DNA of 64,000 bases from an uncultured Ignavibacteria bacterium (lineage in GTDB: Bacteria > Zixibacteria > MSB-5A5 > SM23-73-2): contig CAYURP010000002.1 in NCBI GenBank assembly GCA_964447175.1, positions 937-64,936 of the forward strand, in the 5' to 3' direction. The notes below the pieces were generated by a model. The model had not been told where the DNA came from, did no database searches, and saw nothing but the letters and a program-made list of their open reading frames with translations. Below, piece by piece: positions 24,390 through 60,540 of the stretch. The translations under genes were made by a program, and so were the position numbers. Every line of letters begins with the position of its first letter. Within the stretch, counting starts at the first letter, position 1.

Positions 24390-24430
24390 GGTGGACCATT
24401 ATAAAAGGGCGAGGATTTAAAAAGTTAATA

Positions 24431-25032: not shown

Positions 25033-25105
<73 letters not shown>

Positions 25106-26044: not shown

Positions 26045-26142
26045 AGGATAATAGTCGATTTCAAGGTGGGGGACACTGCTCAGGTGGTGTCCCCTTCCCG
26101 AATTTCACAGGAAATGCCAGATACTTTTTTTGAGAAAACTAT

Positions 26143-26994
26143 ATGAGCTTCTCATATTTCAGGATAGCTCATGAACACCCCTATAGGGGTTTCACCCTTC
26201 TGGAGTTAGCCATAGTCATGGCCATTTTCGGATTATTGACAGCATCCGCTGTAGGACTTTATGGGGCCATGTCCAAACGCAATCGAGAAGTGAAAACCAA
26301 AGACGAAATGGAAAACATAAGAGAGGCAGTGCTGGGCTATTATCGGAACTATCTGTTTTTACCCGCTCCGGAAGCCGGGTATGTTGTTCCCATTGACGAG
26401 CTGGATCTTCCACCCACAGCCCAGAAGGATGAGATCTATAAAGGAAAGTATTATGCTTACATAGCGACCAATGCCGGGTCACCATTCTCCGAGCTGTTAG
26501 TGGACGGACAGTCCATAGGAGAAACAGCTATAGTTTTGATATCCAGCGGAGCCAACTTGAGATTTGAGGAGGAAAATTCCGATCTCGGCGACGGGGAATA
26601 TTCTCAGGAGGGAACCACTGCAGATTTCGATGATATACTTATATGCCTTTCTGGCAACGAGCTGGGGTCCTCCATTGCTTGGAGAAGGGAGATCGAGGAG
26701 GAAGTGGCAGTGTTGAATCGGGCTGCAGAGATATTGGCGAAAAACGATGATGATGGAGATGGGTTTGTAGATGAGGATTCCACCGACCCTTCAGGCAACT
26801 CAGATAGCTACACTGACTGGGATCTGGTGAGTGGAACAGGGTCTTTAGTCAATGCCGGGCTTTTGTGGAATCCCGATCACATAGTGGACCCATGGGGAAC
26901 TGAATATTGTTGGGATTTTTTTAATCATGAATTTTACTCAGCCGGCTCCAACAGGACCGATGAAGGCTGTGGTGGGGATGATATCTGCCCTTAA
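26143..26994 (+). CDS. larger prepilin-type protein (minor pilin or pseudopilin)
   Basis: 283 aa. ...YRG|FTLLELAIVMAIFGLLTASAV prepilin motif, then an Asp/Glu-rich region (DDDGDGFVDEDSTDPSGNSD) resembling a Ca-binding loop. Confidence 0.65.
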   Translation: MSFSYFRIAHEHPYRGFTLLELAIVMAIFGLLTASAVGLYGAMSKRNREVKTKDEMENIREAVLGYYRNYLFLPAPEAGYVVPIDELDLPPTAQKDEIYKGKYYAYIATNAGSPFSELLVDGQSIGETAIVLISSGANLRFEEENSDLGDGEYSQEGTTADFDDILICLSGNELGSSIAWRREIEEEVAVLNRAAEILAKNDDDGDGFVDEDSTDPSGNSDSYTDWDLVSGTGSLVNAGLLWNPDHIVDPWGTEYCWDFFNHEFYSAGSNRTDEGCGGDDICP

Positions 26995-27009
26995 AAGGAG
27001 CAAAATCAA

Positions 27010-28377
27010 ATGCTTTTGTGCGTGGATTTGACAAGTAAGAAAGCCAAGGTAACCGGGATAAATAAGGGGAAAAGATCTTTCAGAGTTGTGGAATCGCTGG
27101 AATTTGACATATCTAAGCTGGAAACAGCCTTTGGAGAATATCTTAAGAGCAGATCCGGGGACATTGACGAAATAAGGGTATCCGGAGCTCTGGAGAATAC
27201 CTTTCATAAGATCTTCATTATTCCCGATCTGAAGGGAAAGATGTTTACGGCTGCCCTGTATTCTGAGGTGACAAAAGCCTTTGGAGTTATTTATCAATTC
27301 AAATACCTGGATATGGGTGAGGTCCCCGGTCCTGGTAATAAAATTAACCGAAAGATAATGTCAGCAGGTATAAAAAGAGATAACTTGGAAGAGCTCTCAC
27401 GACTGTTTAACGACTCCCCAACAAAACCGGATATGTTTACCACATATCCGGTAGCTGTGCATGCGGCTATTCAAAAACTCGAACTCATATCTGAGGAACC
27501 CCTGGGTTTTCTGGAGCTGGACTATCCCACCAGTCGTATAGTTATCTTCAAAGGGGATGAAATAAGAGTGTCTCGGGAGATCAATGTTCTGGAGGAGGAA
27601 AAAGACCCTGACCGATCAACTCTGGCTAAGGATATCTATCGAACCCTGCTTTTCTACACGGAGAACTATCCTAACGAGTTAGTGAAGAGAATAGTTTTGG
27701 CAGGAAACTCAGCCACCTCAAAAACTGTTGAGGCTTTGACTAAAAAAACAGGAGCTGAGATCATTCCCTTTTCACCCGAGGGCATGATCGAGAAATCAGA
27801 TAAAATATCCCCCGTTCCCCCTGGATGCTTGGGGCTGGCACTGTTAGATCCCGATAGCTTCCCCTTTGAATTCGTACCCATGTCGATTCAGGAGAAAAGA
27901 AAGATAAAAAAGGCATTAACCCTCTCCTTTAGTGCTATTCTGGTTATTGTCCTGATTCTTGCTTTAGCCATTTCTCGGTTTTCTCTGGATTTGAGAAATC
28001 TGAATAATTACCACAGGGGGATTAAAGGTGGAATCAAGATGAAGGAGGATCGGCTGAAAGAGCTGGGTTTGGAGTTTGTCTCTCATTCCATTGAAACCAC
28101 CCAACCCCCATGGTCTGAGGTGCTTCTGGAGATGGCAGCGGCAGTGCCGTCGGGGGTTGTTTTTGAATCCTTTGTCTTGAAGAAGACAAATAAGGTGTGG
28201 AGGGGGGAAATCGTAGGCTTGGCAGAGGGGAAAGACGAGATCAGCTCGCTTTTGCTGGTGGAAAGCTTACAAAATAATTTCAATCAGTCCCCCCTTTTTA
28301 AGGATGCTAAGCTGTTGGAAAAAGAACTGCAAGGTAAAAAAGTTGAGTTCAAAATTAATTATCAATTGAATATGTGA
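27010..28377 (+). CDS. PilM/PilN-like fusion (MshI/MshJ-like): actin-like cytoplasmic domain + TM + periplasmic domain
   Basis: 455 aa with a single TM helix ALTLSFSAILVIVLILALAISRF around residue 300. Position is first in an Msh-like gene order. The family call is inferred from architecture and synteny. Confidence 0.45.
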   Translation: MLLCVDLTSKKAKVTGINKGKRSFRVVESLEFDISKLETAFGEYLKSRSGDIDEIRVSGALENTFHKIFIIPDLKGKMFTAALYSEVTKAFGVIYQFKYLDMGEVPGPGNKINRKIMSAGIKRDNLEELSRLFNDSPTKPDMFTTYPVAVHAAIQKLELISEEPLGFLELDYPTSRIVIFKGDEIRVSREINVLEEEKDPDRSTLAKDIYRTLLFYTENYPNELVKRIVLAGNSATSKTVEALTKKTGAEIIPFSPEGMIEKSDKISPVPPGCLGLALLDPDSFPFEFVPMSIQEKRKIKKALTLSFSAILVIVLILALAISRFSLDLRNLNNYHRGIKGGIKMKEDRLKELGLEFVSHSIETTQPPWSEVLLEMAAAVPSGVVFESFVLKKTNKVWRGEIVGLAEGKDEISSLLLVESLQNNFNQSPLFKDAKLLEKELQGKKVEFKINYQLNM

Positions 28378-28378
28378 T

Positions 28379-37230: not shown

Positions 37231-40071
37231 TTAATTTTGCTTATTCTCCTGCTTAATCTTCCCCTCATCGATGATCTGAATAGGTCTGTGGCGAGGCAAA
37301 ACTTTTACTGTGATTTCCCTTTCCTCTCCTGGTTTTAGATCGAGCTGAAACTCCTCTTGCTCCAGGTAATGGTGGGTGGGTAGATTGTAGTCATAAATTT
37401 TCAGCTTCCATTTGCCAGGTCTTATATCTTCAAAGGAAAATCTACCTTTTTCATCTGTAAGTTGACGCAAAACTTCTTCTCCGTCAGTAATCTCTACTAA
37501 AATATTACCTAATCCTCTTCCCTCCCTCAAATCATCATTCTTAGGTTTTTCTTCTTTACCCGGCCCTATCAAAAACAGGCTGTCCTCGGAAATACTAACC
37601 TTATCCTCAAGTTTTTTATCCGAAGGGAGGGCGAAAATTGCTACCCTGCCTGAGAACTTACAAGAGGTTACTACACCAATCTCAGTCGTTATCGTTTCTC
37701 CACCTTTTACCTCTATTATAACAGGCAGTTTCCTGGTGGTAACCCGATTAAATCCGATAGAGGCTTTATCCACTCGCAGGTAGTAGGTTCCTGGCTCAAG
37801 CGAAGGAAAGATGTATCCTCCATTTTCGCGGGTTATCGCAGTTGCTTCATTAGCTGTTAAAATAACTTTTGGAATTGGGGGTTTTTCTGGTTTTTCTTGG
37901 TCATAAACTTTGCCTTTCAGAACTCCAATACTTTTCTTTTTGCTTACAGGAATTCTTAAGGGAATGGTATACATTAAGAGAAATGAGAACTCTCCCTTTT
38001 GCTTCTGTTCATACTTTGACCACTGGCTCCTTAAAACTAAAGCATGGTTATTTGGTAAGGTATAGTTAAGGGTGGAGAAGATATTACTTAGCTTTTGACT
38101 TCCTTCCGAACCAGATTCATCCCTCCGAAAGTTCAGGCTGATGCAAATTTCATCCTTGATATTCCAGGAACCTGAAATATCTATGGTTTTTGTCTTTTTG
38201 GGGCTCCCGGTAAAACTGCTATGTCCAGTTCTTGTGTAAAGACTATATGTTTGCCCGTAACTTGGACGAAAATGAAGATAAAGGCTATATCTTTCTAGAT
38301 TATTATTCTTGGTAGCTAAAAGTCTGTCTTCAAATTCCCCTCTTTCTACGTGGGTGCGGAGGCTGAATTTACCAAAGGTTTGTGCCACTTCTAATTTCAA
38401 TGTTTTTTCTTTGTAATTATAATTAACTGGTAAAACACAATCTTCTCTAATTAAATCTTCATACTTTAAAGAAATGTGTGTGCCAAAAGGAAATGAATAG
38501 AAAGCACTTGCCTGGCGAGACTTTTCCCGGTTAGCTGTCTCCTTAGTAGAGTCAATGTCGAGATTATTTTTGTAAGAGCGGTAGGAGAAATTTCCTCGTA
38601 GTTTACGGTAAATTGGAAAGGTTATTGTGCTACTCTTATAATCAGCATCATTGTAATAACCAAAATAGTTTGGTCCAGCATAAATATTCTCATAAGAGTA
38701 CCGAATCTGGTCAGATAACTGGCCATCCAGGTTTATTCGAAAGGCTAACTCACCAGATTCTTGTTCTCCCTCAGTATCGCAGTAACCCAATTCTAAGTCG
38801 AGATTTAAAGTCTTGGCTAATTCCACTTTTGATTCGAGACTATAGAGCTTCTCATCGTAGCTCCAGGAAGAGGAGGTGGATCTATTCCTTTTGGTCAGGA
38901 AATTTCCTTTTATGTTTAATTTCTTGGTGAATTGATAGCTAAGTGATGTTCCTACCCTTCTAAGCTTTGGTTGTGACCACCTGTTCTCTGCATAAAAAAC
39001 TTTTAATCCATACCTTTCGGGGGAGATATTTGCTTCTAATCCTCTACCATAACAGAATTTCTGGGTTAAAGGAGAAAGGGAATAACTTCCATCACCAAAA
39101 TGTAGCTGTATATCGTCATAGTGGTAACTGAGCCGGTACTCATCTCTTCTCCCGCGTCTGCTTATCTCCTGAATGTCAGGACCCCGAAATAGAAAATCAA
39201 TCCCTCGTTTGCCTTCTTCATCCAAACTACCCCTGCCGGAAAGCTCTGCCTGAAGACCGTTTTTTCCATCCTGGCCTGCACCCATTAATGCCACCTGAGA
39301 AGGCAATATAAGGTAACGACCAAATTCATCGGTTACTTTGGGGATAATCTCAACTAAAACCGTTCGGCTGACAGAAACCACTCCATTGCTTGAGTCTTCT
39401 GTCTCAGCCTTAATCTCAAGAACATTTTTGATTCTCTTTTTTAACTTTGCATCCGTCTCTACTTCAACTTTTAGAACCTGGGACTTTCCAGCTTCCAATG
39501 CTATCACAGGTGGTTTTATGCTAACCGGGTAGGTTGGAGTTGATTTTATTTTGAATCTTAAGTCGATTTTACTATTACCCTTGTTAACCAAACGCAGCAT
39601 TAACCCATAAGCATCTCCAGCAATTACCACCTCCGGTTTTCCTTCCACTAAAATCTCTAACTTCATCACTGGTAACACTACCACCGATATGCTATCACTA
39701 TCTGTGATATTATAATCCCTCTCACTTCTGATGGAATAGCCAATCTGGTAGCGACCGGTAGCACAAGTTTGAGGGACCATGAATGCGACCACCCTAACTC
39801 GTTGCTCTTCCGGCTTTAGTCTAAGAGGAAACTGGTCGGAAATAATCTCCTGCCAACCAGCAGGCAGCTTCAACTCCTCGATAAATTCCTCTTCCCCTTG
39901 GGTCTTGTTGGAAACCAGGAAACTTCCAGTAACGATTCTGCCAGGTTCTATCTCTAAAAGTTCAGGTGAGGTCGATCTTACTTCAACTCCATAACCTCTG
40001 TCTTGGGCAAAGCTTAAAGAGAATAGGAGGGAAATAAAACAAAAGAAGAAAATAAAATCCTTTTTCATCAT
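37231..40071 (-). CDS. large outer-membrane-type protein: N-terminal Ig-like region, central beta-barrel-like region, two C-terminal CarboxypepD_reg-like beta-sandwich domains (usher-like topology?)
   Basis: 946 aa; signal peptide MMKKDFIFFFCFISLLFSLSFAQ. The central ~350 aa are rich in Y/S/T/N/R alternating strands. The C-terminus has GVLKGKVYD...GGYIFPSLEPGTYYLRVD and GRVAIF...GRFSFEDIRPGKWKLKIYDYNL. Last gene of a 4-gene operon. Confidence 0.5.
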   Translation of the reverse strand: MMKKDFIFFFCFISLLFSLSFAQDRGYGVEVRSTSPELLEIEPGRIVTGSFLVSNKTQGEEEFIEELKLPAGWQEIISDQFPLRLKPEEQRVRVVAFMVPQTCATGRYQIGYSIRSERDYNITDSDSISVVVLPVMKLEILVEGKPEVVIAGDAYGLMLRLVNKGNSKIDLRFKIKSTPTYPVSIKPPVIALEAGKSQVLKVEVETDAKLKKRIKNVLEIKAETEDSSNGVVSVSRTVLVEIIPKVTDEFGRYLILPSQVALMGAGQDGKNGLQAELSGRGSLDEEGKRGIDFLFRGPDIQEISRRGRRDEYRLSYHYDDIQLHFGDGSYSLSPLTQKFCYGRGLEANISPERYGLKVFYAENRWSQPKLRRVGTSLSYQFTKKLNIKGNFLTKRNRSTSSSWSYDEKLYSLESKVELAKTLNLDLELGYCDTEGEQESGELAFRINLDGQLSDQIRYSYENIYAGPNYFGYYNDADYKSSTITFPIYRKLRGNFSYRSYKNNLDIDSTKETANREKSRQASAFYSFPFGTHISLKYEDLIREDCVLPVNYNYKEKTLKLEVAQTFGKFSLRTHVERGEFEDRLLATKNNNLERYSLYLHFRPSYGQTYSLYTRTGHSSFTGSPKKTKTIDISGSWNIKDEICISLNFRRDESGSEGSQKLSNIFSTLNYTLPNNHALVLRSQWSKYEQKQKGEFSFLLMYTIPLRIPVSKKKSIGVLKGKVYDQEKPEKPPIPKVILTANEATAITRENGGYIFPSLEPGTYYLRVDKASIGFNRVTTRKLPVIIEVKGGETITTEIGVVTSCKFSGRVAIFALPSDKKLEDKVSISEDSLFLIGPGKEEKPKNDDLREGRGLGNILVEITDGEEVLRQLTDEKGRFSFEDIRPGKWKLKIYDYNLPTHHYLEQEEFQLDLKPGEEREITVKVLPRHRPIQIIDEGKIKQENKQN

Positions 40072-40898
40072 TCAATTCCTAAATCATATTGAGCACCAAA
40101 GACGTATTCATCTCCGTTGTCGACTACTACTAAAGCCCTATACTTCCCTTTTGGAACATCCGTTAAATCAACATCATGCCTTACAGAACAGCCTGGGTAG
40201 ATCCGCTTTTTGTCACTTTCAAGGCGGTTCACCCTTGTTCCCTGGCTGTCGTAGAGTTCTACCCACATTGTGGGAGTAAGCCACCTTTCCCCGATATTTT
40301 CGATATCCATTTGAAGAATTGTTTTCTCATCCTGAATTATCAACTTCTTATCCAAAAACTTAATCTTACGGATTCCAGTATCGCTAATGTGTGTGATCAT
40401 CTGAACACCGTAGCGGATGACCTGCCTTATGCCCAACGCGGGTCTACCTTTCTCTGGCATACTGAACTCGGGTGAACTTTTTGAAATTTCCTCTACCATA
40501 AGCATACTCCAGTAGGTTCCGACCAGAGTCTCATCCTCAGGCACTTTTAAGGTATATTTAACCTCGGATACGTCTTTAGGCGGGATCACCTGCCGATGAG
40601 GGTTAAAGCTAATCCACTGGGCATTGGAGCGCTTATCCATGCCAGGCTCACCATAAATACTTCTGCCATCGTAGAAAAAAAGGTAGTCGGTCTGATAGAG
40701 CTTTACCTCTAAAGGTTCTTCCAGGGGGTTTCGGATAAAGATGACGCCCTCATAAAATTCACCCACTGTGGCTTCTCTTTCCTGGGTCAAGCCACCAACA
40801 ATAATTATCCCGGCCTGAGCTACATTCGGCATCAACAAGCAGGAAAACAAAGCAAAGAAAATAATCTTTCTTTTCAATTTCATAATCTCAACCTCCAA
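40068..40898 (-). CDS. secreted periplasmic protein (candidate chaperone-like/Ig-fold partner)
   Basis: 276 aa; signal peptide ...MPNVAQA. Beta-rich, no recognisable catalytic motif. A 4-nt overlap with the downstream barrel gene and a 1-nt gap to the upstream gene indicate translational coupling. Confidence 0.4.
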   Translation of the reverse strand: MEVEIMKLKRKIIFFALFSCLLMPNVAQAGIIIVGGLTQEREATVGEFYEGVIFIRNPLEEPLEVKLYQTDYLFFYDGRSIYGEPGMDKRSNAQWISFNPHRQVIPPKDVSEVKYTLKVPEDETLVGTYWSMLMVEEISKSSPEFSMPEKGRPALGIRQVIRYGVQMITHISDTGIRKIKFLDKKLIIQDEKTILQMDIENIGERWLTPTMWVELYDSQGTRVNRLESDKKRIYPGCSVRHDVDLTDVPKGKYRALVVVDNGDEYVFGAQYDLGIE

Positions 40899-40899
40899 G

Positions 40900-41379
40900 T
40901 CAAGTTTCGGTAACTGTGTAAATAACCGTGCCTGAATAAGTATCCGGGGTGATTTGTATGGAAACCCCTGTCAAACCACATTGTACACCGACGTTAATTC
41001 TCGTAAGTGAACCAGTAAAGAATTGTTGGTTAGCACCGGCCACTTGCTGCCATGAAGTTCCACCCGAGATTGAACCTGAACCGGTTCCATCGGTGGTTCT
41101 TCTGATGTAAAATGTCACACCGGGAGGCCATTTAGTAACGGCCCCTCTCACAGACACGACCCAGGAAGTGCTTGTATTTTCAATATCTATACCTATTTGA
41201 TCGGTGGCACTTAAATAGGTAGGGTTAAGGTCACTTCCAGCACCAGCTTGTAAATCTGAGGCATCAATAGTCAAAAACCAGCTACCAGTTACGGTAATGT
41301 CAATTGCCTGTATTTTTTCCCATATGGTAATTGACACAAATATAAAGAGCAGGATTAAGAATTTGATTGTTATTCTCAT
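40900..41379 (-). CDS. small secreted Thr/Gly/Ser-rich protein, SCPU (spore-coat-U / sigma-fimbria subunit)-like
   Basis: 159 aa; signal peptide. The C-terminus ...ITPDTYSGTVIYTVTET resembles the (A/P)GxYxDTVTVTV ending recalled for SCPU-domain proteins. Family assignment is from memory. Confidence 0.4.
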   Translation of the reverse strand: MRITIKFLILLFIFVSITIWEKIQAIDITVTGSWFLTIDASDLQAGAGSDLNPTYLSATDQIGIDIENTSTSWVVSVRGAVTKWPPGVTFYIRRTTDGTGSGSISGGTSWQQVAGANQQFFTGSLTRINVGVQCGLTGVSIQITPDTYSGTVIYTVTET

Positions 41380-41437
41380 TTTGTACTTTTTTGGGAAGAG
41401 GGCGGACCTTAAAAGGTCCGCCCATCGCCAAACTTAC

Positions 41438-41926
41438 TTACGGTCCATCTGTAAGGGTGTAGGTAACCGTGTGAACATCACTTCCCGTTCCTTGAGCTGC
41501 GGTAGCACTTGCCGTGTACTGTAAGTCACAGCCGCCAATTGTCGTCCCTATTGCGGTAACAAAATTATTGGCTCCTGTGGTGCTAAGAGTTACTTCGGAC
41601 GCTGCGGTGCCACCAGTGACGTTTTGAGCCAGAACTTTGAGGGTAAAAGTCGGAGCCGCCAGATCGGTTTCCACTGTGATCTTTTTAGTGGCTTCGTTTG
41701 TGGTCCAGTCCAGATCACAGGTGGTATTATCTACTGCGTCATCGGGCTCCTGTCCGGCAGTGGCGGTATTAATAGTCAGGACAAGGTTCCCCCCAGCAAT
41801 AGCAATCTCATTGATCGCTTGAACCTGCACGGTTACCGTGTGGTTGTCGGTGTTTGATGCCATTGCCAGTATGCCCACGGCAAGTACAAGCCCCATCACC
41901 GCCACACCCACAATCAGTTTCTTCAT
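41438..41926 (-). CDS. small secreted Thr/Ala/Gly-rich protein, possible second fibre-subunit-like protein
   Basis: 162 aa; signal peptide MKKLIVGVAVMGLVLAVGILAMA; strong RBS ggagggcgggaggag. Single Cys pair, and the C-terminus ends ...GSDVHTVTYTLTDGP. First gene of the operon. Confidence 0.4.
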   Translation of the reverse strand: MKKLIVGVAVMGLVLAVGILAMASNTDNHTVTVQVQAINEIAIAGGNLVLTINTATAGQEPDDAVDNTTCDLDWTTNEATKKITVETDLAAPTFTLKVLAQNVTGGTAASEVTLSTTGANNFVTAIGTTIGGCDLQYTASATAAQGTGSDVHTVTYTLTDGP

Positions 41927-42431: not shown

Positions 42432-45284
42432 CTATTCTGGTTTTTTGATTTTGTACTGTTTGATCTTGAATCTCAAGGAGGATTCCGGAATATGCAAGGC
42501 GTCTGCTGCGGCGTTTTTCACCCAGTTGCTGTCGATCAATGCCTTAATGATGTATTGACGCTCCCACAATGCTACCCGATCATAAAGGGAAAGCTTCTCC
42601 GAGTGCAAATCGGAGGGCATGGTGAATTTGTCGGAGAGGATGTCCAGACGCGGGGTTTTGGTTTCCCGGTTGAAAGCTAAAAGCCTTTTGACCTCGTTTT
42701 CCAGTTCCCTGACGTTTCCGGGCCAATTGTAATTGGTGAAAAGCTCCAGGATAAGGGGTATCAGATGGGAGAACTTAGATGGATCATCTGAGTAGGTTTT
42801 AATGAAGTGATCAACCAGCAAGGGGATATCCTCTCTTCGATCCTTGAGAGGAGTAAATTTGATATGCACGGCATTCAGCCTGTAGAAAAGATCCATCCGG
42901 AAGCCACCCTGTTGAACCTCCTCCTCCATGTTCTTGTTGGTGGCGGATATTATCCGGATATCTATTTTTCTGGGTTTGGTTTCACCTAACCGGGTTAACT
43001 CTTTATCCTCCAGGACTCTCAGTAGCTTGATCTGAATGGAGGGATGCATGTCTCCGACTTCGTCCAGATACAGAGTCCCTCCGTCCGCTTCCTCCAGAAG
43101 ACCCCTTTTATCGTAAGCAGCACCAGTGTACGCCCCTTTTCTATGCCCGAACAGCTCAGATTCGAATAAGGATTCGGGCAAAGCAGCGCAGTTTACTGGA
43201 ACAAACCTTTGATTTTTCCTGCTGCTGGAATAGTGGATGGCTTTGGCCACAAGATCTTTTCCGGTTCCGGTATCGCCTTCCAGCAATATGGAGATGGAGG
43301 AATCCTTCACCTGTTTCAGCTTCCATAACGTCTTGAGCATATCGCTGTTTTGAGTGATCACATTGGGGAAACAGTATGTGAGCTGGAGCTGTTCCTTCAA
43401 TCTCAGGTTATCTTCCTCCAGTTTCCTTTTCTGGATTTCCACTAATTTCAGGGCAAGGACGTCAGCAAAAGCCACGGCAAAGTTTAGCTGGTTCTGGTTG
43501 AAGGCTGAGCTTTGTTCACCGTTAACCACTCTATCCAGGTAAAGGTGGCCATCTATCTTCTCGCCGGTCTTCAGAGGCACACAGATCAGGCTCTGAATGG
43601 TGTTGCCGTTCTCCAGACTGGCATTGGTCTGGATAAGTGGTTTTTCCAGTTTTTCCTTTTTGTTCTGGAAAAGCTCGGTGAAGATCTCTGTGGCTTTATC
43701 CAGACTGAAGTTGTAGGCTGAGCTTATAGGAAAGTCCTCCTGGTCATTGTTTAAAACCACAAATCCTCTATCAGCAGAAATCCGATGGGCTAAAATCTGA
43801 AGGCTTTCATCCAGGCTTCCAGCTTGAATTCCTTGATATTCACCTTCGCTTAAATCCCTGCGGAACAGCCTGTACTCGTTATCAACTGAGAGACTTTTTT
43901 CACTGATGGCTTTTTCCACCTTGCTCCGCAGAGACAGAATCTGATCAAAGCAATACTGATCTTTTAGTTCGGAGAATATGTTTTGAGCCTGATCCAGCGA
44001 AGAGATAGAGTTATCGAAGTTGTTATTTGCCATTTGAACTTCTGCTCTTTGAATCAGGGTCAGACCAATCCAGTATGGGATTTTCAAACCCTTAAAGATT
44101 CTCTCACTTTCTCTGAGATAATTCAGGCTCTCCTGATGGTCGAAAAGCCTGGATTGAGCAGCTTTAAGAATAGTTTTAGCCAGCTCATATTTAGCTCCGA
44201 TCTCCCTGAAAAGATCGATACCTTTAAGGAAATACTGGGCGGCTTTGGTTTTCTCATCCTTCTGGGTATGAATCTGTCCAAAGAGCCTGTATACCGCACC
44301 CTCTTCCAGTTTGTTGTTCAATGAGAGGGAGACATCCAAAGATTTATTGCAGGAGTTTAATGCCTCCTCCAGTTGGTTTGAACTGAGCTGAAGTTCTGCT
44401 AATAGCCTGAAAGATTGATTAATTATATCACCATCCGGAGCGATCTTCTCTCCAATCTCGATTGCCTTAAGGTAGAATTCTTTTGCTTTTTGGAGCTCCC
44501 GTTTTTCGAATTCCAGCTCTCCGGAATACTCATAATAGATGGCTAACTCTCGGATCAGGTTGTTATTCTCTATTAAAGGTAAAGCTTTGAGATAGGTTTC
44601 CTCAGCTTGGAGGAAGTCCCTCATTAAAAATCTGATATAGCTCAGGGAGAGATAGCAGCGAGCTAAGTTTATCTCGTCTTTTCGATCTGTGTGAATTTTG
44701 ATGGCTGATAAGATGTTTTTCTCTGCTGCGGAGAGCTCCCCGGATCTGATATAGACCACAGCCACGTTTGCCAGAAGGTGAGCCATTACCTTATGGTTAT
44801 TGGTTTTTTCGCAGATGTGGATGCTTTCATTGAGGTATTCGATGGACCTGGAGAATTCGGATCGGATAAAGTAGATATTGGCTAATTTGTTGTATGAATT
44901 GATAATCCCCTCGTAATCCTCGATTCTCCTGTAAGTGGCTATAGCGTCCCTTAGTTCCGCCTCGGCGTTTTTGGAATGGCCCAGCCTGAGATAGGTGTTT
45001 CCCAGGATATAAAGGGTCTGAGCTATTCTTTTGTTTTCCAGGGTGTTTTTGAAGATCTCGTAGGCCTTTTTCCCTTCAGCCAGTGCTTCCTGGTACCTGC
45101 CCAGCCCGTAGAAAGTGGCAGCTAAAAGATAGGATATAGTGCCCCTATCAATAGAATAAGCGTCTTCTTTCAGCTGGGGCAAAATCTCTCTAAGCGCTGC
45201 TAACGCTTGGCTGAACCTGCCCTTCTGAACTAACGCTTCGACCTCTTCTAGCTTTGTATTTAGCTTTAGCATCGTCTTTTTCAC
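42432..45284 (-). CDS. sigma-54-dependent enhancer-binding protein with long N-terminal TPR array and GAF-like domain, C-terminal HTH
   Basis: 950 aa. About 450 aa of TPR repeats, then a GAF-like segment. AAA+ sigma-54 interaction domain: Walker A LEGDTGTGKDLVAKAIH, ESELFGHRKGAYTGA (GAFTGA variant), Walker B LYLDEVGDM. C-terminal Fis-type HTH AAADALHIPESSLRFKIKQYKI. Confidence 0.85.
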   Translation of the reverse strand: MKKTMLKLNTKLEEVEALVQKGRFSQALAALREILPQLKEDAYSIDRGTISYLLAATFYGLGRYQEALAEGKKAYEIFKNTLENKRIAQTLYILGNTYLRLGHSKNAEAELRDAIATYRRIEDYEGIINSYNKLANIYFIRSEFSRSIEYLNESIHICEKTNNHKVMAHLLANVAVVYIRSGELSAAEKNILSAIKIHTDRKDEINLARCYLSLSYIRFLMRDFLQAEETYLKALPLIENNNLIRELAIYYEYSGELEFEKRELQKAKEFYLKAIEIGEKIAPDGDIINQSFRLLAELQLSSNQLEEALNSCNKSLDVSLSLNNKLEEGAVYRLFGQIHTQKDEKTKAAQYFLKGIDLFREIGAKYELAKTILKAAQSRLFDHQESLNYLRESERIFKGLKIPYWIGLTLIQRAEVQMANNNFDNSISSLDQAQNIFSELKDQYCFDQILSLRSKVEKAISEKSLSVDNEYRLFRRDLSEGEYQGIQAGSLDESLQILAHRISADRGFVVLNNDQEDFPISSAYNFSLDKATEIFTELFQNKKEKLEKPLIQTNASLENGNTIQSLICVPLKTGEKIDGHLYLDRVVNGEQSSAFNQNQLNFAVAFADVLALKLVEIQKRKLEEDNLRLKEQLQLTYCFPNVITQNSDMLKTLWKLKQVKDSSISILLEGDTGTGKDLVAKAIHYSSSRKNQRFVPVNCAALPESLFESELFGHRKGAYTGAAYDKRGLLEEADGGTLYLDEVGDMHPSIQIKLLRVLEDKELTRLGETKPRKIDIRIISATNKNMEEEVQQGGFRMDLFYRLNAVHIKFTPLKDRREDIPLLVDHFIKTYSDDPSKFSHLIPLILELFTNYNWPGNVRELENEVKRLLAFNRETKTPRLDILSDKFTMPSDLHSEKLSLYDRVALWERQYIIKALIDSNWVKNAAADALHIPESSLRFKIKQYKIKKPE

Positions 45285-45292
45285 CCATAGAG

Positions 45293-45601
45293 TTATCTGC
45301 TGGCCTTACTCCTTGAATGACGTGAGCGGGTGGACTCAGAACCCTTGGTTTTGACTGGAGTATCCGAAACGGATACCTTGGTAAAAGTGAAAGTGAAATA
45401 GGGAGAAGCCGGTACATAACCTACGGTTACGATGATAACCTTGATGTCATCATCATAATAAGGTGTGCTGCCTGTCTCATTCCAGGGGTCAGCATCCGGG
45501 TCTGGTTTGGGGTCCGTCCCATCATTGGGAAAGGCTGAAACTATAAGGAATAGGAGAAGAAAAACCAGGGTTAAAAGACTTAGGATCTTTTTTGCTTTCA
45601 T
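45293..45601 (-). CDS. small secreted Asp/Pro-rich protein with basic C-terminal tail
   Basis: Start set at MKAKKILSLL... with RBS ggaggagggg. Signal peptide, then PNDGTDPKPDPDADPWNETG, and the C-terminus ends ...TKGSESTRSRHSRSKASR. About 9 nt from the activator gene start. Confidence 0.45.
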   Translation of the reverse strand: MKAKKILSLLTLVFLLLFLIVSAFPNDGTDPKPDPDADPWNETGSTPYYDDDIKVIIVTVGYVPASPYFTFTFTKVSVSDTPVKTKGSESTRSRHSRSKASR

Positions 45602-45934
45602 CTTTCCCCTCCTCCAAAGCGGGATCAAAAGTTTTTACTTTTTTAAAGAACTACTTTATTGGAGGAAATTAAACAAACTCCTCCATTCTAAATTTAATGC
45701 AAAAAAGCTTTTTTGTCAAGCGTTTTTTGCTAATTTCTTATGTTCCAAAAAATTATACGAAAGCTCTTTTAACTGAATTTGAACGAAATAATTAGCAACA
45801 AAAAAACTGATTATGAAATAATTCTGAGTTCTTGAGTTAAAATACTTCATCAAAGGCCACTTTACAGGACTTGAGAAGAATTGCCTGATTCGAGAGATTG
45901 CCACGACCTTCGAGCCCGCAATTACATAGGGTAG

Positions 45935-46081: not shown

Positions 46082-48394
46082 CTACCACCAGGACCAGATC
46101 TCTACCCTTAGGTAGTGGATTATTCTTCTGGTTAAGACATAAATCAAACTTCGTTTTCCGCAGTAGATTTTGGCATGGCCGGTCATCCCGGGCCTTAATA
46201 GGTGCTCGGCGTTTGCTACTTTGCTGGTTATTCGGAATACTTTCCTTGAACCAATGCTTTCGGATTGATGGGAGATTCTGGAAACCTCTCCAAAAAATGA
46301 TTCAAAGGGATAGCTCCTGACTTTGGTTTTGACCTTTAATCCGGGCTGGACCACGTCCATGTCTTTTTCAGAAACATAAATCAAAACCCTTACGGTATCG
46401 ATGTTTTTGATGCTCAGGAAGTTGCTGTCTGTTTTCACTGTGGTGACAATCCCGGAGATGGGGGTTTTTATCTCGGATGCCTGTATCTGATTCTCCAATA
46501 ACTCTGCCTCTGCCTTGAATTGTTCCACCTCTGCCTGTGCCATTTTAAGTTCCTCAGGCTTTGAGCCAGCTTCCAGTATCTTGAGATCGTTTTCTGCAAT
46601 ATCCTTTTCCTTAATCAGAACAGAGTGGTCGGTGGTGATTTTTTCTAATCCCTCCTCGCTTATCAGATTCTGCTCTGAAAGCTTCTTTGCCCTATCCAGC
46701 TCAGATTTTTTGGATTTGAGTTTAAGTTCCGCTTGAGTTAACTTGTCTTTAGCATTCTGGATTTCCTCCGGGTCGGGCCAGTTTTCTAAAAGCTGGTAAT
46801 TGGCTTCTGCTTGTTTGATTCTGGCGTTTATCTCCTTTAGCTGGGTTTTATACTGGGTGGAGCTAAATGAGGCTATTACCTGTCCCGGCTTCACCATCTC
46901 CCCCTCTTTTACCCTGGTCTCCAGATTGACCACGGCATAGTCCGAGGAGATCAATTTCAAAAAATTGGTCTCCTTTTTCTCCTGGTTTTTTGCCAGAAAA
47001 ATATTCTCCTGAATATACCCGTCAGTATGGGTAATCAAGGTATAGGATTCCAGGGGTGCGATCTCGCAGTTGCTGGAGACCCTTAACTGAATCGGGAAAA
47101 GGAAAAGAAAAAGAAGAATTGCAGCAATTATGATTGACCATCGGATGATCTTTTTTGGCTTCAAAATATCCTCTTTTTTTACCAGAAAAAAGCTAACAAA
47201 CCCAGCCAGAAAAACCTGAGCCGGATGTTTAAAGATAAGATAGACTAAAACCAAAAACAAGACAAATCCATACCCCTGAAACTGGTGCACTAAGAACTTC
47301 TCGACTCTGATAAAAATATAACCCAGAAGCAAGACAGAATAGATCAGAGACAAACTTCCATAAAAGGAGTAAATCTTTTTCTCCTTGGGCGTGATATTAA
47401 CTTCCTGCACTTCCAACTTCAGGATATTCTTTTTGAAAACCGAATTCAGATAACCGAACGCTTTTTTTCTGAGGTTGGGTATCTCCAGGTAGTCTGACAG
47501 AAGATAGTAGGCATCGAATTTCATCAGGGGATTGAAGTTAAAAAGCAAAACTACACCGGAGGTCAACATCACCACGAAAAGGAAACTATTGAGCTGGGTT
47601 TGGATATCGGTGATTCTCCAGAGAATGGTTGCTGATGCCCAGAGGAAAATGTGAATGTAAATTCCGGCAAAGGAGACCCAGAGCTTTTTCGATTTCTCTT
47701 TAAAAAGCCAGGCATCGGACACGTTGGTGAAAAAAGCAGGCTGAAGATATATCAGCAAAAATCCCATCTCATGCACATCTCCACCATAGTGTTTACAGGT
47801 TACGGCATGCCCCAGCTCGTGAATTATCCCGATAAAAAAGATGGCAATCCAGAGCTTGAAGATGGTGGTGATGCGATAAAGCCCCCGAAGAGAGTATCCC
47901 AGATCGCCCCAGTTAAAGATTGTTATGAGGAAGCCTAAAACTATCACCAAAATCGAGAAGATGAAAAACCCGGGCGTGAATAGGAATCTAACCTTTTTGG
48001 TGAACCTATCCAGAAACCTGTTGGGATCAAAGGCTTTGATCTTTAAAAAGAAAATCCTTCTGAGGATGTTTTTCTTTTTCTGAGCCTGGTATTGTAATTT
48101 TGAAAGCTCCCTTTGAGATATTTCCCCTTCTAAAAAGCCTGCCTTTTCCAATTTTTCAATGAATCTATCTAAGGTTTCAGAGGATACTATGACATTCAGT
48201 TCCTGATGCAGCTTTTGTATAATCTTTTCTTTGGGTGTTTTGCCGTCGAGATATTTTATGATAAAGTGTTCTGGTTCACCCACACGGAAGAATCTTTTGG
48301 TGATAGGATCTTTTATCACATAGTAGGTTTTGTTCTCGAATACCTGCTGGCTTGTGATCAGCTTTTCCCTTATTTTGGGATAATTACCTGTCAT
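46082..48394 (-). CDS. membrane HExxH zinc-metalloprotease-like domain fused to HlyD-family periplasmic adaptor (membrane-fusion protein) domain
   Basis: The ORF runs to a GTG at 48466. The first ATG with a plausible context is MTGNYPKIRE (48394), so the start is uncertain. A multi-TM region contains GIIHELGHAVTCKHYGGDVHEMGF. The C-terminal half has an HlyD-like coiled-coil, biotin-lipoyl-like and beta-barrel segments (GEMVKPGQVIASFSS...; RVLIYVSEKDMDVVQPGLKV). Confidence 0.6.
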   Translation of the reverse strand: MTGNYPKIREKLITSQQVFENKTYYVIKDPITKRFFRVGEPEHFIIKYLDGKTPKEKIIQKLHQELNVIVSSETLDRFIEKLEKAGFLEGEISQRELSKLQYQAQKKKNILRRIFFLKIKAFDPNRFLDRFTKKVRFLFTPGFFIFSILVIVLGFLITIFNWGDLGYSLRGLYRITTIFKLWIAIFFIGIIHELGHAVTCKHYGGDVHEMGFLLIYLQPAFFTNVSDAWLFKEKSKKLWVSFAGIYIHIFLWASATILWRITDIQTQLNSFLFVVMLTSGVVLLFNFNPLMKFDAYYLLSDYLEIPNLRKKAFGYLNSVFKKNILKLEVQEVNITPKEKKIYSFYGSLSLIYSVLLLGYIFIRVEKFLVHQFQGYGFVLFLVLVYLIFKHPAQVFLAGFVSFFLVKKEDILKPKKIIRWSIIIAAILLFLFLFPIQLRVSSNCEIAPLESYTLITHTDGYIQENIFLAKNQEKKETNFLKLISSDYAVVNLETRVKEGEMVKPGQVIASFSSTQYKTQLKEINARIKQAEANYQLLENWPDPEEIQNAKDKLTQAELKLKSKKSELDRAKKLSEQNLISEEGLEKITTDHSVLIKEKDIAENDLKILEAGSKPEELKMAQAEVEQFKAEAELLENQIQASEIKTPISGIVTTVKTDSNFLSIKNIDTVRVLIYVSEKDMDVVQPGLKVKTKVRSYPFESFFGEVSRISHQSESIGSRKVFRITSKVANAEHLLRPGMTGHAKIYCGKRSLIYVLTRRIIHYLRVEIWSWW

Positions 48395-48466
48395 TTTTCT
48401 GAGAACGATTTTTTTATAATCTACCAAAACGTAATAAAATAAGTCAAGTGAAATCTGAATTAGCAC

Positions 48467-49700
48467 CCTTCGGGCGAAGATAAACTTCGCCCCTACGCGT
48501 TAATTTTATAACCTCTCCCTAACCCTCTCCTTTTAAAGGAGAGGGAATAGGTGAGGATAAACTCTTTTTAGGGAGTAGCCTGGAGTCTTCTGATCCAAGG
48601 TAATGGTGTCCGGGTTGTGAAACCTGTCATTGCGGGTGATAGCGAATCAATCTTCAATTAAGGATGTATGATTCTGTCGGGTCGGGGGACCCGACAGACA
48701 CAGAATTCCCACCTTGCCTCAATGTGGGATTACAGTTTTAACCCCTCCTGACCTCCCCTTATCAGGGGAGGAATATTTTGAGTCCCCCTGACAAGGGGGA
48801 AACGGGGGTTTATTTCGTCCTTGCCATAACTCCGGCCACATTCTCCAAATCCCCAATCAACTCTTTCTTGTCTTTCATATAACTTTGCCTTGATTCTTCA
48901 TTTTCTATTTTCTGGACAATATCATTCACGATTTTGAAAGCCAATTCAAACTCCTTATAACCTGTTTCATAATCTTTGCTCTGAATATGTAATTTTCCCA
49001 AAAAATGATGAATTCTCCACAAAGTTTCCGGCTTTCCTATTATCTTTGGCAATTTCTTTTGATTTTTTCAAATTCACCTAACCTCTGACAAAAGGTAGAC
49101 CAGTGGCCTCGGGCACTGGTCAAAATATACTTTTTCAAGGGTCTCATTCATCGGGACACGAAAAACCAATTTGATGAATCAAACCGCTACGAGAAACCCC
49201 TGTAGATATCACACCTGTCCCGTTCTTGGCGGGATTTATGCGACCCGATGAACTGTTTTAATAACCCCTCCTGACCTCCCCTTATCAGGGGAGGAACATT
49301 TTGAGTCCCCCTGACAAGGGGGGATACGGGGGTTTATTGCGTCTTCAACAGAAACCCTCCCACCCCTCCAAATCCTCCATCAACTCTTTCTTGTCTTTCA
49401 TATAACTTTGCCTTAAAGGGTACACCAGTAGCCTCTGCCACTGGTCAAAATATACTCATTAGCCCAGGCAGGGGTGCTTAGGCTACGAGACTTTTCTTTC
49501 CGAACCTCTCCCTAACCCTCTCCTTTTGAAGGAGAGGGAATGGGTGAGGATGTACTCTTTTCAGCGGGTAGCCTGGAGTCTTCTGATCCAAGGTAATGGT
49601 GTCCGGGTCAACGAAACTCTTTTACGTTGAAATAATGTTATCGTAGGGACATACCTTTAGGTCTGTCCGTGACACCAAAAAAACGGACAGGTCTGAAGAC
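48467..49700. repeat. repeat-dense region made of duplicated modules (A: 48511-48615/49504-49608; B: 48737-48814/49259-49337; C: 48845-48895/49368-49415; D: 49095-49131/49417-49454)
   Basis: Each module occurs twice with more than 85% identity. Module B is a pair of GC hairpins (ctcccct-tatc-aggggag; tccccct-gaca-aggggga) plus a T-run. The region is bounded by the direct repeat gggcgaagRtaaacttcgcccctacgcg at 48470-48500 and 50577-50603. Confidence 0.7.
48810..49052 (-). pseudogene. TPR-like gene fragment embedded in the repeat region (probable remnant)
   Basis: The 80-aa ORF contains TPR-like helices. Its 5' end (module C) is duplicated at 49368-49415 without a continuing ORF. Confidence 0.3.
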
Positions 49701-49805
49701 CTGTCCCTACATTCCTTCATTCTTTTCAAGAAGAAATCCTCTTGACACCTGATGGTTACTTTCTAAGTTATTGAGTCGTACTTTTCTTGAACGTAGAACT
49801 TAACA

Positions 49806-57865: not shown

Positions 57866-59230
57866 ATGTTCCAGAAGTTACGAGAAATCTTAAGCAAAAT
57901 TGACGCTGATTATGCGGACGTCCGCTACGAGATCAAAAAGGAGTCTGTTATCTCATTCAGCGGAAAGGAGCTTACCCAGATCGGCTCTAATTCCACGGAT
58001 GGATATGTGATAAGGGCGCTAAAAGACGGTGGGTTGGCTTCGGTTGTCTTCACCAAACAGTCCGATGCTGAGAAAGCAGTCAGATCCGTGGTGGAGAACG
58101 CACAGCTGATTTCTAAAAACATTGATAAGCCGGTTAAGCTGGCGCAGGTGGAAAAAGCGAAGGATACCTTTATCCCTACCTTGAAGGAGGACCCCAGAAA
58201 AGTTAGTATGGAGGAGAAACTGGAGTTGATTAGAAAGTATAATGATATAGTCCTGGGATTTGACAAGATTGCCACCACAGCCATAGGCTACGAGGAGGTA
58301 ATGAGGGAAAAATACTTCCTCAGCTCAGAGGGTTCAGAGATACGGGAGGATCTGATAACCACCAGGCTGAGAGGTGAGCTGATAAGCACAGAGGGTAACT
58401 TAAGGCAGAATATCCGGGTAGCTGCTGGCGGGAGCAACGGATTTTCCACTATCAGGGATCAGGAAAGCTATTTTGAGAAGCGAGCCAAAACAGTAATTGA
58501 CCTTTTGAAAGCCAAGCCGGTCAAAGGCGGAACTTATAACTGTATTTTGAATCCCAGCATGGCAGGTGTTTTCACCCATGAGGCATTTGGCCATTTTTCC
58601 GAAGCGGATTTGATTGAGAACCTTCCGGCAATGCGGGAGAAAATGAAAATTGGAAACAAGCTGGGCAATGACATCCTGAATATAGCGGACAATGCTACAT
58701 TACCGGATCAGCTCGGATTCTACAAATATGATGATGAAGGAATAAAGGTTCGACACACCCAGCTTATGAAAAATGGCGTTTTAACCGGTCATTTACATTC
58801 AAGAAGAACTGCTGCTGAATTCGGGGAACCCATCTCGGGCCACACAGTGGCTGAGGATTATCGCTATGCTCCCATAATCAGGATGGGGACCATATTCATC
58901 GAGCGGGGCAAGCATACCTTCGATGATCTGGTTAAAATGCTGGGCGATGGATTGTACGTCCTGGATGCCAAGGGCGGCGAGACCTCCGGTGAGAATTTCA
59001 GTTTCGGTGCCCAGTATGCCTACCATGTGAAAAATGGCAAGGTGGGTGAGATGGTGCGGGATATAAACGTCTCGGGCAACCTGTACCAGACATTGAAGAA
59101 CATAAATGCAATCGGGAATGATTTTACCCTGTCAAAAGTTGGGGGCTGTGGCAAGTGGCAGGCTAATATCCGTTCCTGTTACGGGGGTCCGCATATACTT
59201 GTCAACAATCTCGTCATAGGAGGTGTGTGA
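57866..59230 (+). CDS. tldD: TldD-family metalloprotease
   Basis: 454 aa. HExxxH-type motif FTHEAFGHFSEAD and a GxC-containing C-terminal region (GGCGKWQ) typical of TldD. Confidence 0.8.
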   Translation: MFQKLREILSKIDADYADVRYEIKKESVISFSGKELTQIGSNSTDGYVIRALKDGGLASVVFTKQSDAEKAVRSVVENAQLISKNIDKPVKLAQVEKAKDTFIPTLKEDPRKVSMEEKLELIRKYNDIVLGFDKIATTAIGYEEVMREKYFLSSEGSEIREDLITTRLRGELISTEGNLRQNIRVAAGGSNGFSTIRDQESYFEKRAKTVIDLLKAKPVKGGTYNCILNPSMAGVFTHEAFGHFSEADLIENLPAMREKMKIGNKLGNDILNIADNATLPDQLGFYKYDDEGIKVRHTQLMKNGVLTGHLHSRRTAAEFGEPISGHTVAEDYRYAPIIRMGTIFIERGKHTFDDLVKMLGDGLYVLDAKGGETSGENFSFGAQYAYHVKNGKVGEMVRDINVSGNLYQTLKNINAIGNDFTLSKVGGCGKWQANIRSCYGGPHILVNNLVIGGV

Positions 59231-60540
59231 TGGAGAAATTACTGGAAATGGCTAAAAAGGTATGCGACAAGTCAGAGGTTTATTCGGTGGAATATACCAA
59301 CAATCACGTTTCATTTGAAAATGCCAAACTTCAGAACATAGATAACAAGTTTCAGTCAGGGTTAAGTCTGAGAATAATCAAAGACGGTAAGCTGGGATTT
59401 GCCTACACCAGGAATCTGATAAATCGGGAAGAGCTTGTGCAGAATGCCCTTGAGTCTTTGAAAGGTGGAGTGGAGGCAGAGTATGATTTTCCTTTGACCA
59501 ATGATCTTCCCAAGCTCAATACCTATGATTCATCTATGGAAAAGCTTTCAGGCAGGGATATGGTGAATGAGTGTGCTCGGGTGTGCGATCACTTAAAATC
59601 CAATACGGACGGTGAGATCGAGATGAATTCACTTGCCGTCACAGATAAGTTACGCATCATAAACACCGAGGGAACCGACATCACCGGGCAAAGCACCACC
59701 TACGCCATGTTCGGAGCTATAACCTATCCCGGAGTCGGCACAGGCATCTTGAGATTTTTCCAGGATAAAAAATTCGATAAGTTTCCTGACGACACAGCAA
59801 ACGATATGATCCAGCTTTACCAGGCATCCTCCAAAGTTGTGGAAATCAAAGGGGGCAAGATGAAGGTGATGTTTATGCCCAACAGCTGGATTACGCTCAC
59901 CTGGAGAATCTCAAGCGGCACAAGCTCCAAATCGGTTTACGAGAAAATCTCGCCTGTGGCAGATAAGGTGGGAAAGAAGATATTCGATGAAAAACTCACC
60001 ATCTGTGACGATCCCTTAGACGATAAATTCCCCGGAGCCCGGGCATTCGATGATGAGGGAGTCAAATGCAGGCCCTTAACCCTGGTGGAAAACGGGGTAT
60101 TGAAAAGCTTTTACTATGATCTGGACTACGCCAAAAAGATGAAAGCTAAATCCACCGGACACGGGTACAGAACGTCAATGTGGGGAGGGGATTCCATTAC
60201 AATGAAGCCCATACCAGCCCTTTCTCACTTAAGAGTAAAAACCGGCAATAAGTCCTTCTCGGATTTGTTAAAATCAATGGACAAAGGCATCATAATCGAA
60301 GGAGCATTAGGACCCCACAGTGGAAACATACCCAATGGAGATTACTCAGTTGGTATCAGTCCGGGATTGTATGTGGAGAACGGCGAGATAGTAGGCCGGG
60401 TAAAGGACGTAATGGCAGCAGGCAATATCTACGAGACCTTGAAAAACGTCGTGGATATCGGCGACACCCTATATCCCACCTGGTTTGGTGCCTGGGTGCC
60501 GGCAATAGTATTCGACAACGTAAGCGTCGCCGCGAAGTAG
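59227..60540 (+). CDS. pmbA: PmbA/TldE-family protein (TldD partner)
   Basis: 437 aa. PmbA_TldD fold with no HExxxH. A 4-nt overlap with tldD suggests a coupled heterodimer pair. Confidence 0.75.
   Translation: MMEKLLEMAKKVCDKSEVYSVEYTNNHVSFENAKLQNIDNKFQSGLSLRIIKDGKLGFAYTRNLINREELVQNALESLKGGVEAEYDFPLTNDLPKLNTYDSSMEKLSGRDMVNECARVCDHLKSNTDGEIEMNSLAVTDKLRIINTEGTDITGQSTTYAMFGAITYPGVGTGILRFFQDKKFDKFPDDTANDMIQLYQASSKVVEIKGGKMKVMFMPNSWITLTWRISSGTSSKSVYEKISPVADKVGKKIFDEKLTICDDPLDDKFPGARAFDDEGVKCRPLTLVENGVLKSFYYDLDYAKKMKAKSTGHGYRTSMWGGDSITMKPIPALSHLRVKTGNKSFSDLLKSMDKGIIIEGALGPHSGNIPNGDYSVGISPGLYVENGEIVGRVKDVMAAGNIYETLKNVVDIGDTLYPTWFGAWVPAIVFDNVSVAAK

Follow-up and report, generated by a model that had tools for sequence, protein, structure and literature searches.

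What does a protein do that carries an intramembrane protease and a periplasmic adaptor in one chain, with no export pump encoded beside it? The question is posed by a gene in a stretch of 64,000 nucleotides (the window; contig CAYURP010000002.1 of assembly GCA_964447175.1) from an uncultured bacterium named as Ignavibacteria and placed by GTDB in the Zixibacteria. An initial annotation, made from the letters of the window, described the gene as a membrane HExxH metalloprotease-like module fused to an HlyD-type adaptor. The comparisons reported here resolve three modules, an RRE domain, a site-2 protease (S2P) core and an HlyD-like adaptor, and suggest that together they may form a leader-guided protease built into a duct across the cell envelope.

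One gene and its start

The open reading frame (ORF) at 46082..48466 (minus strand, as for all features of this gene given below) runs for 794 codons from a GTG with no interruption, much as first described; the ~790-aa length then given holds for that GTG and gives way to 770 aa if translation begins at the ATG that homologues support. A word-indexed search of 5.8 billion proteins returns 1,773 relatives (E<=1e-5), of which the top 120 were inspected. These are 48-92% identical to the query, nearly all full-length (mostly 767-783 aa, a few to 810), and cover 100% of the 770-aa query beginning at ATG 48394. Two alignments were used throughout, one of 34 close relatives (A1) and one of 40 diverse relatives reaching down to 29% identity (A2). 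In A1, M1, P6 and R9 are conserved and the homologues begin at the equivalent of M1; no homologue, among the best 120 or in A1, aligns to the 24 codons between GTG 48466 and ATG 48394. Because the homologues begin at M1 and the upstream codons are unconserved, alignment places the predicted start at ATG 48394 rather than GTG 48466, which settles a choice initially left ambiguous and makes the complete coding sequence 46082..48394 (770 aa plus stop). The 5' extension from the alternative GTG (48395..48466) is most likely an untranslated leader or promoter region outside the protein. A sigma-70-like TTGACT-18-TAGATT lies within it at 48447-48418, but the match is weak and site counts there are not above chance.

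A single tblastn match covers residues 1-770 at 80 genomic loci from several phyla. Since the homologues are full-length single proteins and these 80 loci each give one match spanning the whole chain, 46082-48394 is a real single gene; the unnoticed frameshift that the initial annotation named as a possible refutation, and with it a two-gene artefact, is excluded.

Three modules in one chain

Sequence comparison recovers the two halves of the protein unequally. An N-terminal profile run against PDB sequences yields no S2P or RRE, only chance matches (E 0.04-1), so that fold comparison was needed for this half, and residues 1-445 were modelled separately because adaptors swamped the full-length Foldseek list. 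In both AlphaFold models (full chain and residues 1-445), residues 5-88 (48131..48382) form three strands followed by three helices, the winged-helix fold of a cytoplasmic, PqqD-like RRE (RiPP recognition element) domain; domains of this class take up a leader peptide as an additional strand. The Pfam family PqqD (PF05402) matches 13 of the 40 diverse relatives at E<=0.01.

Residues 138-303 (47486..47983) have the fold of an S2P catalytic core: TM1 (the first transmembrane helix) is followed by TM2, which carries HExxH, then by a re-entrant beta-hairpin, TM3 and TM4, the last of these kinked and bearing NxxPxxxxD. The two motifs noted at first, HELGH in the membrane helices and an acidic motif downstream, are both present. 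HELGH (residues 192-196, 47807..47821), the zinc-binding and catalytic motif contributing H192, E193 and H196, sits inside the hydrophobic TM segment 176-202; it is invariant in A1 and A2, and HExxH is kept in all 150 nearest representative clusters. The acidic motif is NFNPLMKFD (residues 286-294, 47513..47539), the NxxPxxxxD(G) of S2P proteases, with D294 as third zinc ligand. P289 and D294 are invariant in A2 and N286 and N288 nearly so; the residue after D294 is A here and G in at least 90% of relatives. H192, E193, H196, P289 and D294 are thus all invariant in relatives down to 29% identity. Among the 40 diverse relatives, 37 match Peptidase_M50 (PF02163) with E<=0.01, the best at 7e-11; this, with the fold and both motifs, supports the proposed M50/S2P identity, although for the window protein itself the Pfam match stays below threshold.

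The best NCBIfam match, over residues 21-387, is the daptide intramembrane metalloprotease NF041824 (model positions 15-364 of 379, E 2.4e-63); its score of 214.5 is under the equivalog cut-off of 300, which leaves the protein outside the daptide proteases proper. MpaP, in which an RRE is joined to an intramembrane S2P, removes daptide leaders (PMC10036551). The window protein has the same two modules in the same order, with HExxH intact, and differs from MpaP, which has no periplasmic adaptor, by three further TM helices and a 340-aa HlyD-type module; nor does it lie in a daptide gene cluster, with its aminotransferase, methyltransferase, dehydrogenase and Thr-ending precursor genes, the neighbouring genes being unrelated.

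Hydropathy and the AlphaFold2 models agree on seven TM helices. TM5-TM7 occupy residues 343-432 (47099..47368), and TM7 (residues 413-432) is the anchor leading into the periplasmic adaptor. The predicted cytoplasmic loops hold 25 lysines and arginines and the periplasmic loops 4, a bias that assigns both RRE and zinc site to the cytoplasmic side, and the residues beyond 432 to the periplasm. The topology is N-in/C-out, with the RRE in the cytoplasm, where the initial annotation had put an N-terminal domain, and the adaptor in the periplasm.

The adaptor, or membrane-fusion protein, module (residues 433-770, 46085..47098) has the lipoyl, alpha-hairpin and beta-barrel parts expected after a TM anchor, the full layout first read from the sequence. 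Two Pfam families score above cut-off in the C-terminal ~340 residues (HlyD_D23, 41.9 vs 30 bits; HlyD_3, 24.9 vs 22.2 bits). Profile matches to PDB sequences include MacA (8.8e-12), the HlyD-type membrane-fusion protein 8dck (3.4e-11) and EmrA (2.7e-09); Foldseek ranks MacA (E 2.7e-17) and EmrA (E 2.9e-16) ahead of AcrA, MexA and ZneB, so that the suggested comparison to HlyD and EmrA holds for HlyD at family level and for EmrA by sequence and by fold. The long alpha-helical hairpin (residues 513-639, 46478..46858) has two arms of ~60 residues each, modelled as helices 513-574 and 580-639 (pLDDT 80-90). At its tip lies RAKKLSEQNLIS (R568-x3-L572-x6-S579, 46658..46693), conserved in A1, where L572 and S579 are invariant and R568 is at least 90% conserved. 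This is the spacing of the "RLS" TolC-docking motif in MacA and AcrA; the RLS tip motif serves adaptors for tip-to-tip docking on TolC-family channels. The chain ends in a family signature, RVEIWSWW (46085..46108), which closes an amphipathic helix (residues 750-767). R763, E765, W767, S768 and W769 are invariant in A1, W767 also in A2, and RVEFWSWW-like endings occur in most of the 40 diverse relatives.

With MacA, EmrA, HlyD and YbhG the window protein shares the lipoyl, hairpin and beta-barrel parts, the N-terminal TM anchor and the R-x3-L-x6-S tip spacing. It differs from them by the protease placed before the anchor helix, by the RVEFWSWW-type C-terminus and by the absence of an adjacent pump or TolC gene.

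A large family under misleading names

An exhaustive HMMER comparison of residues 1-445 with 1.84 billion representatives (clustered at 50% identity) finds the RRE-S2P module in 11,165 representative clusters at E<=1e-3 and in 2,277 at E<=1e-30, and the HlyD-like C-terminal module is detectable in ~105 of the best 150 clusters. Among 185,579 species genomes screened, at least 586 encode a relative (586 of 599 among the matches listed). Labels on the 80 top-scoring loci name Zixibacteria, Acidobacteriota, Verrucomicrobiota, Gemmatimonadota, Phycisphaerae, Aminicenantes and one Burkholderiales metagenome-assembled genome, and several near loci are titled "uncultured Ignavibacteria". The closest relatives point to a Zixibacteria genome as the origin of the window; cluster members of 10 distant representatives come from metagenomic sources only. 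The RRE-S2P-adaptor fusion is not rare but the dominant architecture of a very large and hardly studied family. Because it is retained in ~105 of the 150 closest clusters and found in at least six phyla, strong purifying selection must act on the chain in its full length, in one phylum as in another.

The names given to these proteins are "efflux RND transporter periplasmic adaptor subunit", "HlyD family..." and "putative peptide zinc metalloprotease protein"; the last, a yydH-type label, also appears in JGI naming of relatives. No model in the NCBIfam scan spans the whole fusion.

No conserved partners beside the gene

Genomic context was examined by Pfam scans of essentially all larger ORFs in the window and by clustering 1,140 ORFs from 84 related loci. 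The clustering reveals lineage-specific synteny only, with a ClC channel, an FAD oxidoreductase, a Ser/Thr kinase-TPR protein, sigma54 activators, a TPR lipoprotein and a thioredoxin-like protein as the syntenic neighbours. No cognate ABC, MFS or RND pump is encoded with the fusion in the window or conserved at the 84 loci: a screen of these loci for Walker-A plus LSGGQ returns three ABC-ATPase-like ORFs, none of them in an exporter arrangement (within 10 kb). The ABC or outer-membrane partner and the small precursor genes that the initial annotation hoped to find nearby are likewise missing from the 64-kb window, and none is conserved at the 84 loci. There being no conserved partner genes, the Zixibacteria-type fusion gene is a stand-alone unit.

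A small secreted ORF does follow the fusion gene, at 45293-45628 (-), between it and a sigma54 activator. It encodes 111 aa, more likely ~102 aa starting from MKAKK, and is conserved at two loci, those of the closest relatives L001 (44%) and L005 (35%). As a substrate of the fusion it was rejected as a family-wide partner, being conserved only at those two loci and having an ordinary signal-peptide-like N-terminus.

Operons with distant fusions in Proteobacteria

Distant fusions, 22-27% identical to the window protein, were found by tblastn against plasmids in cultured Proteobacteria (Azospirillum, Burkholderia, Variovorax, Magnetospirillum, Thalassospira, Methylosinus and Rhodobacterales), and eight loci on plasmids and chromids were inspected (L085-L090, L096 and L097). 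The proteins carry the same three modules with HExxH and NxxPxxxxD, the N-terminal half matching at E 1e-33 to 1e-50. Extra adaptors are present in the operon at all eight loci, a TolC-family gene at six, a gene for a giant protein at six (~10-49 kb; DUF4347, LEPR-XLL, LamG-like, "tandem-95 repeat") and an ABC exporter at none. A ~490-aa ELWxxDGT-repeat protein takes the giant-protein position in Magnetospirillum, while in Rhodobacteraceae M382 the 8.7 kb upstream contain no listed gene. The N-termini of giant proteins, in all four that were read (Azospirillum, Burkholderia, Thalassospira and Pseudosulfitobacter), consist of a basic stretch with no Sec signal, followed by ALEPRxxxDA; the LEPR-XLL model NF012209 matches one of two giant proteins scanned. 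That all eight operons hold extra adaptors, most of them TolC and a giant non-Sec protein, and none an ABC exporter, favours by association a role for the fusion in export.

The operon type can be described as a giant protein, TolC, two or three adaptors and an RRE-S2P-adaptor fusion, with SapC and DUF3467 recurrent (DUF3467 in Thalassospira and Methylosinus); a short adaptor and an HlyD protein or HExxH-less paralogue are among the adaptors. In Pseudosulfitobacter a SapC gene is accompanied by a truncated SecA-like ATPase at L086:12678-14702, annotated "prepilin peptidase" and matching SecA models at E 1.8e-175. A gene annotated SecA has the same position in M382 (L090:12638-14596), and a similarly placed gene in Methylosinus (L096:10171-12087) is known by its "prepilin peptidase" annotation alone. 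The three genes encode ~640-675 aa and are a candidate motor for the LEPR-XLL/TolC operon system.

In four of these operons (Pseudosulfitobacter, M382, Thalassospira and Methylosinus) the active fusion has a 600-630-aa "adaptor" gene as its neighbour, and HExxH is absent from all three of these paralogues that were read. The N-terminal half of the window protein matches the active paralogue, and its C-terminal 200 residues are closest to the HExxH-less one, including the W-rich tail and RLS-like tip; the window protein thus unites one proteobacterial paralogue's active protease with the tail and tip of the other. The window gene shares with the LEPR-XLL/DUF4347 operons the fusion and the ABC-less context but stands alone, with no adjacent giant protein, TolC gene or second adaptor, and is not itself part of such an operon. 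In Chlorobium chlorochromatii, according to a 2026 preprint about its giant proteins, SapC and TolC genes adjoin those that lack a signal; a protease-adaptor fusion goes unmentioned. Those loci may be the same kind of system.

Proposed function

We propose that the cytoplasmic RRE would capture the N-terminal leader of a substrate, either a peptide or a larger protein, and that the 7-TM S2P core, with its zinc site near the cytoplasmic face, would cut the leader at or within the membrane. The adaptor, anchored by TM7, would oligomerise in the periplasm and dock its hairpin tip on a TolC-like channel, and the processed product would enter the trans-envelope duct so formed, the protease module taking the place that an ABC, MFS or RND pump has in classical tripartite systems. 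Leader binding, cleavage, oligomerisation, TolC docking and export are all steps that we infer, and we give the model as a whole, in which leaders guide an intramembrane protease that is itself part of a trans-envelope duct, an even chance of being right.

If it is, processing would be coupled to export in the way of a bacteriocin ABC exporter minus the ABC part, as was suggested at the outset. Peptidase-containing ABC transporters of the colicin V/CvaB type, working with an HlyD partner, follow the same proposed logic of leader recognition, cleavage and export. The window protein differs from them in having no C39 peptidase and no ABC domain (Pfam and NCBIfam give no match to C39, ABC transmembrane or nucleotide-binding domains, as initially stated for the ABC domain) and in joining a zinc S2P to the adaptor instead of a C39 to the pump. 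Besides MpaP, a precedent is EpeP, an M50 protease thought to both cleave and export EpeX (PMC10885120). Members of the EpeP/YydH-LiaK family (NF058609) are intramembrane M50 proteases that act on a ribosomal peptide, as the window protein may do; YydH-type proteins, however, lack both RRE and adaptor, and their partner in Firmicutes is an ABC transporter. NF058609 gives weak matches in the proteobacterial relatives scanned (4.7e-08 and 3.6e-06) and is absent among the NCBIfam matches of the window protein.

Several results weigh against the proposal. A protease by itself cannot power translocation, and neither an energy-providing partner nor a substrate is encoded in the window or conserved beside the 84 related loci; local context lends export no support. 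Pfam scans find no ABC exporter, outer-membrane protein of the TolC kind, second adaptor or recognisable precursor gene in the 64 kb; TolC and adaptor queries against the 84 loci return the fusion itself as sole match, and an ORF with the LEPR/EPR motif is absent from the window and from all 84 loci of this metagenomic type. The proteobacterial fusions are only 22-26% identical to the window protein, so their function may not transfer. Only ~19 of the 40 diverse relatives show the strict RLS pattern at the corresponding place in the hairpin. For the window protein, PqqD and Peptidase_M50 both score below their Pfam gathering thresholds (15.8 vs 23.4 and 20.1 vs 27.2 bits), and the AlphaFold2 models are of moderate quality (pLDDT 76.5 and 70.3, full-chain pTM 0.38, active-site loops <50).

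A stronger version of the leader-guided protease can be stated, in which the fusions are the inner-membrane core of an undescribed, ABC-independent and self-contained TolC-linked route of secretion and maturation. The RRE would pick out substrates by an N-terminal leader, the protease would both remove the leader and provide passage or release across the inner membrane, and its own adaptor would form the periplasmic duct. In Proteobacteria the cargo of such a route would be giant LEPR-XLL adhesin-like proteins, with a dedicated SecA-like motor assisting in some lineages. For Zixibacteria, Acidobacteriota, Verrucomicrobiota and Gemmatimonadota, one copy of the fusion, sufficient by itself, would act on unlinked substrates. 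We hold this version tentatively, and think it somewhat unlikely as it stands.

Alternative explanations

The protein could instead be the adaptor subunit of a conventional tripartite exporter, its pump and TolC encoded elsewhere, with the S2P replacing a C39 leader peptidase. All parts of the adaptor module are present and its nearest matches are the ABC- or MFS-linked MacA, EmrA, YbhG and HlyD, and to our knowledge all characterised adaptors work with an inner-membrane pump. Dedicated exporters, however, almost always adjoin their adaptor, and none lies within 10 kb at the 84 loci or anywhere in the window; the proteobacterial operons, with TolC and more adaptors at hand, are also without a pump. 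We regard a conventional exporter as unlikely on this evidence.

Regulated intramembrane proteolysis, with the S2P cleaving a membrane-anchored regulator such as an anti-sigma factor, the adaptor-like domain serving as sensor or gate (compare the PDZ domains of RseP) and transcription as the output, is the classical occupation of S2P proteases, and RseP and SpoIVFB are among the fold matches. A TPR-GAF-sigma54 activator lies directly downstream, and sigma54-activator genes occur at 30 of the 84 related loci. This association is restricted to Zixibacteria synteny blocks, however, and the neighbouring activator matches soluble families only (TPR, GAF, AAA+, HTH), which makes it an unlikely S2P substrate. 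A sigma54 promoter search gives 22 matches vs 24.5 expected, none of them upstream of the fusion gene, and neither an RRE domain nor a TolC-type hairpin tip has a role in known pathways of this kind. A signalling role is accordingly improbable.

Still less probable is a maturation protease of the daptide or epipeptide kind, acting within the biosynthetic cluster of a RiPP (a peptide made on the ribosome and modified after translation) with the adaptor as an accessory. The best family match is a daptide protease and relatives bear the "putative peptide zinc metalloprotease protein" label, but the NF041824 score is well short of its cut-off, and the genes of such a cluster (aminotransferase, methyltransferase, dehydrogenase, radical-SAM, ABC and short precursor genes) do not flank the fusion here or in relatives, apart from a ubiE-like methyltransferase. 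That protease and adaptor genes were merged by a sequencing frameshift or assembly error is refuted, and its probability negligible, given the continuous ORF, full-length homologues from independent assemblies and the 80 whole-length loci; some plasmid records do name the two halves differently, yet these are single coding sequences of ~700-730 aa.

Other features of the window and of related loci

The fusion gene is preceded by a 1.4-kb repeat-rich spacer, the ubiE-like methyltransferase gene and OmpH, and followed by the small secreted ORF and the TPR-GAF-sigma54 activator (42432-45284). The spacer (48467-49805) contains duplicated segments and several GC-rich palindromes: 48739-48891 resembles 49262-49414 at 92-96%, and 48510-48615 resembles 49503-49608 at 93%. 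An 80-aa ORF within it, at 48810-49052 (-), resembles what is left of a TPR protein's C-terminus, and the residues "SYMKDKKEL" with which it ends occur again at 49345-49425.

Elsewhere in the window, Pfam scans identify TonB-dependent receptors, a cluster like those of type IV pili and type II secretion systems, a PorV-like protein, peptidases and TldD/PmbA. The PorV-like protein (23379-24389) is preceded by two outer-membrane proteins of ~890 aa, the first matching TonB-dependent receptor families and the second with no Pfam match. The pilus-like cluster follows in the same region (23379-36201 in all) and includes N-methyl pseudopilins, a secretin, AAA, TPR, GspE/MshE-like and GspF-like proteins. 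L001, the closest relative, has the TldD/PmbA metallopeptidase pair (57866-60540) in synteny. Downstream of the sigma54 activator, 37231-41926 (-) encodes four consecutive secreted proteins. Pfam assigns no family to three of them (162, 159 and 276 aa); the fourth, of 946 aa, combines domains of the CarboxypepD_reg and SpaA-like kinds with a weak match to PapD_N. The four genes may make up an undescribed type of fimbria- or usher-like operon under sigma54 control.

On the Zixibacteria chromosome CP070839.1, directly downstream of the fusion orthologue (L010:12400-13047), a thioredoxin-fold ORF contains an in-frame TGA exactly at T-[TGA]-P-Y-C-P. The same family is present at L004 and L012-L016. 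The ORF, which ORF callers split in two, probably encodes a selenocysteine UPYC redox protein.

Significance

None of the three modules is new by itself, and daptides already provide an example of the RRE-S2P pair. No description of the triple fusion, of its stand-alone occurrence or of the proteobacterial operon type was found in 7.7 million PubMed Central papers and bioRxiv, a scope that leaves outside it the subscription-only literature and notes in TCDB and InterPro. What defines a tripartite envelope machine is that an energised pump in the inner membrane works with an adaptor and TolC. Here a presumed leader-binding intramembrane protease and an adaptor share one chain, with no pump gene alongside either in the stand-alone genes of several phyla or in the proteobacterial TolC operons, and the latter adjoin some of the largest bacterial proteins known.

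The window gene is an ordinary member of a family that is large, mislabelled and mechanistically unexplained. If the proposed function is true, the family would represent a new way to couple leader removal with envelope crossing and would explain how the giant LEPR-XLL/DUF4347 proteins are exported, with neither Sec nor a C-terminal type I secretion context. It would also correct thousands of database labels that now read "efflux RND transporter periplasmic adaptor subunit".

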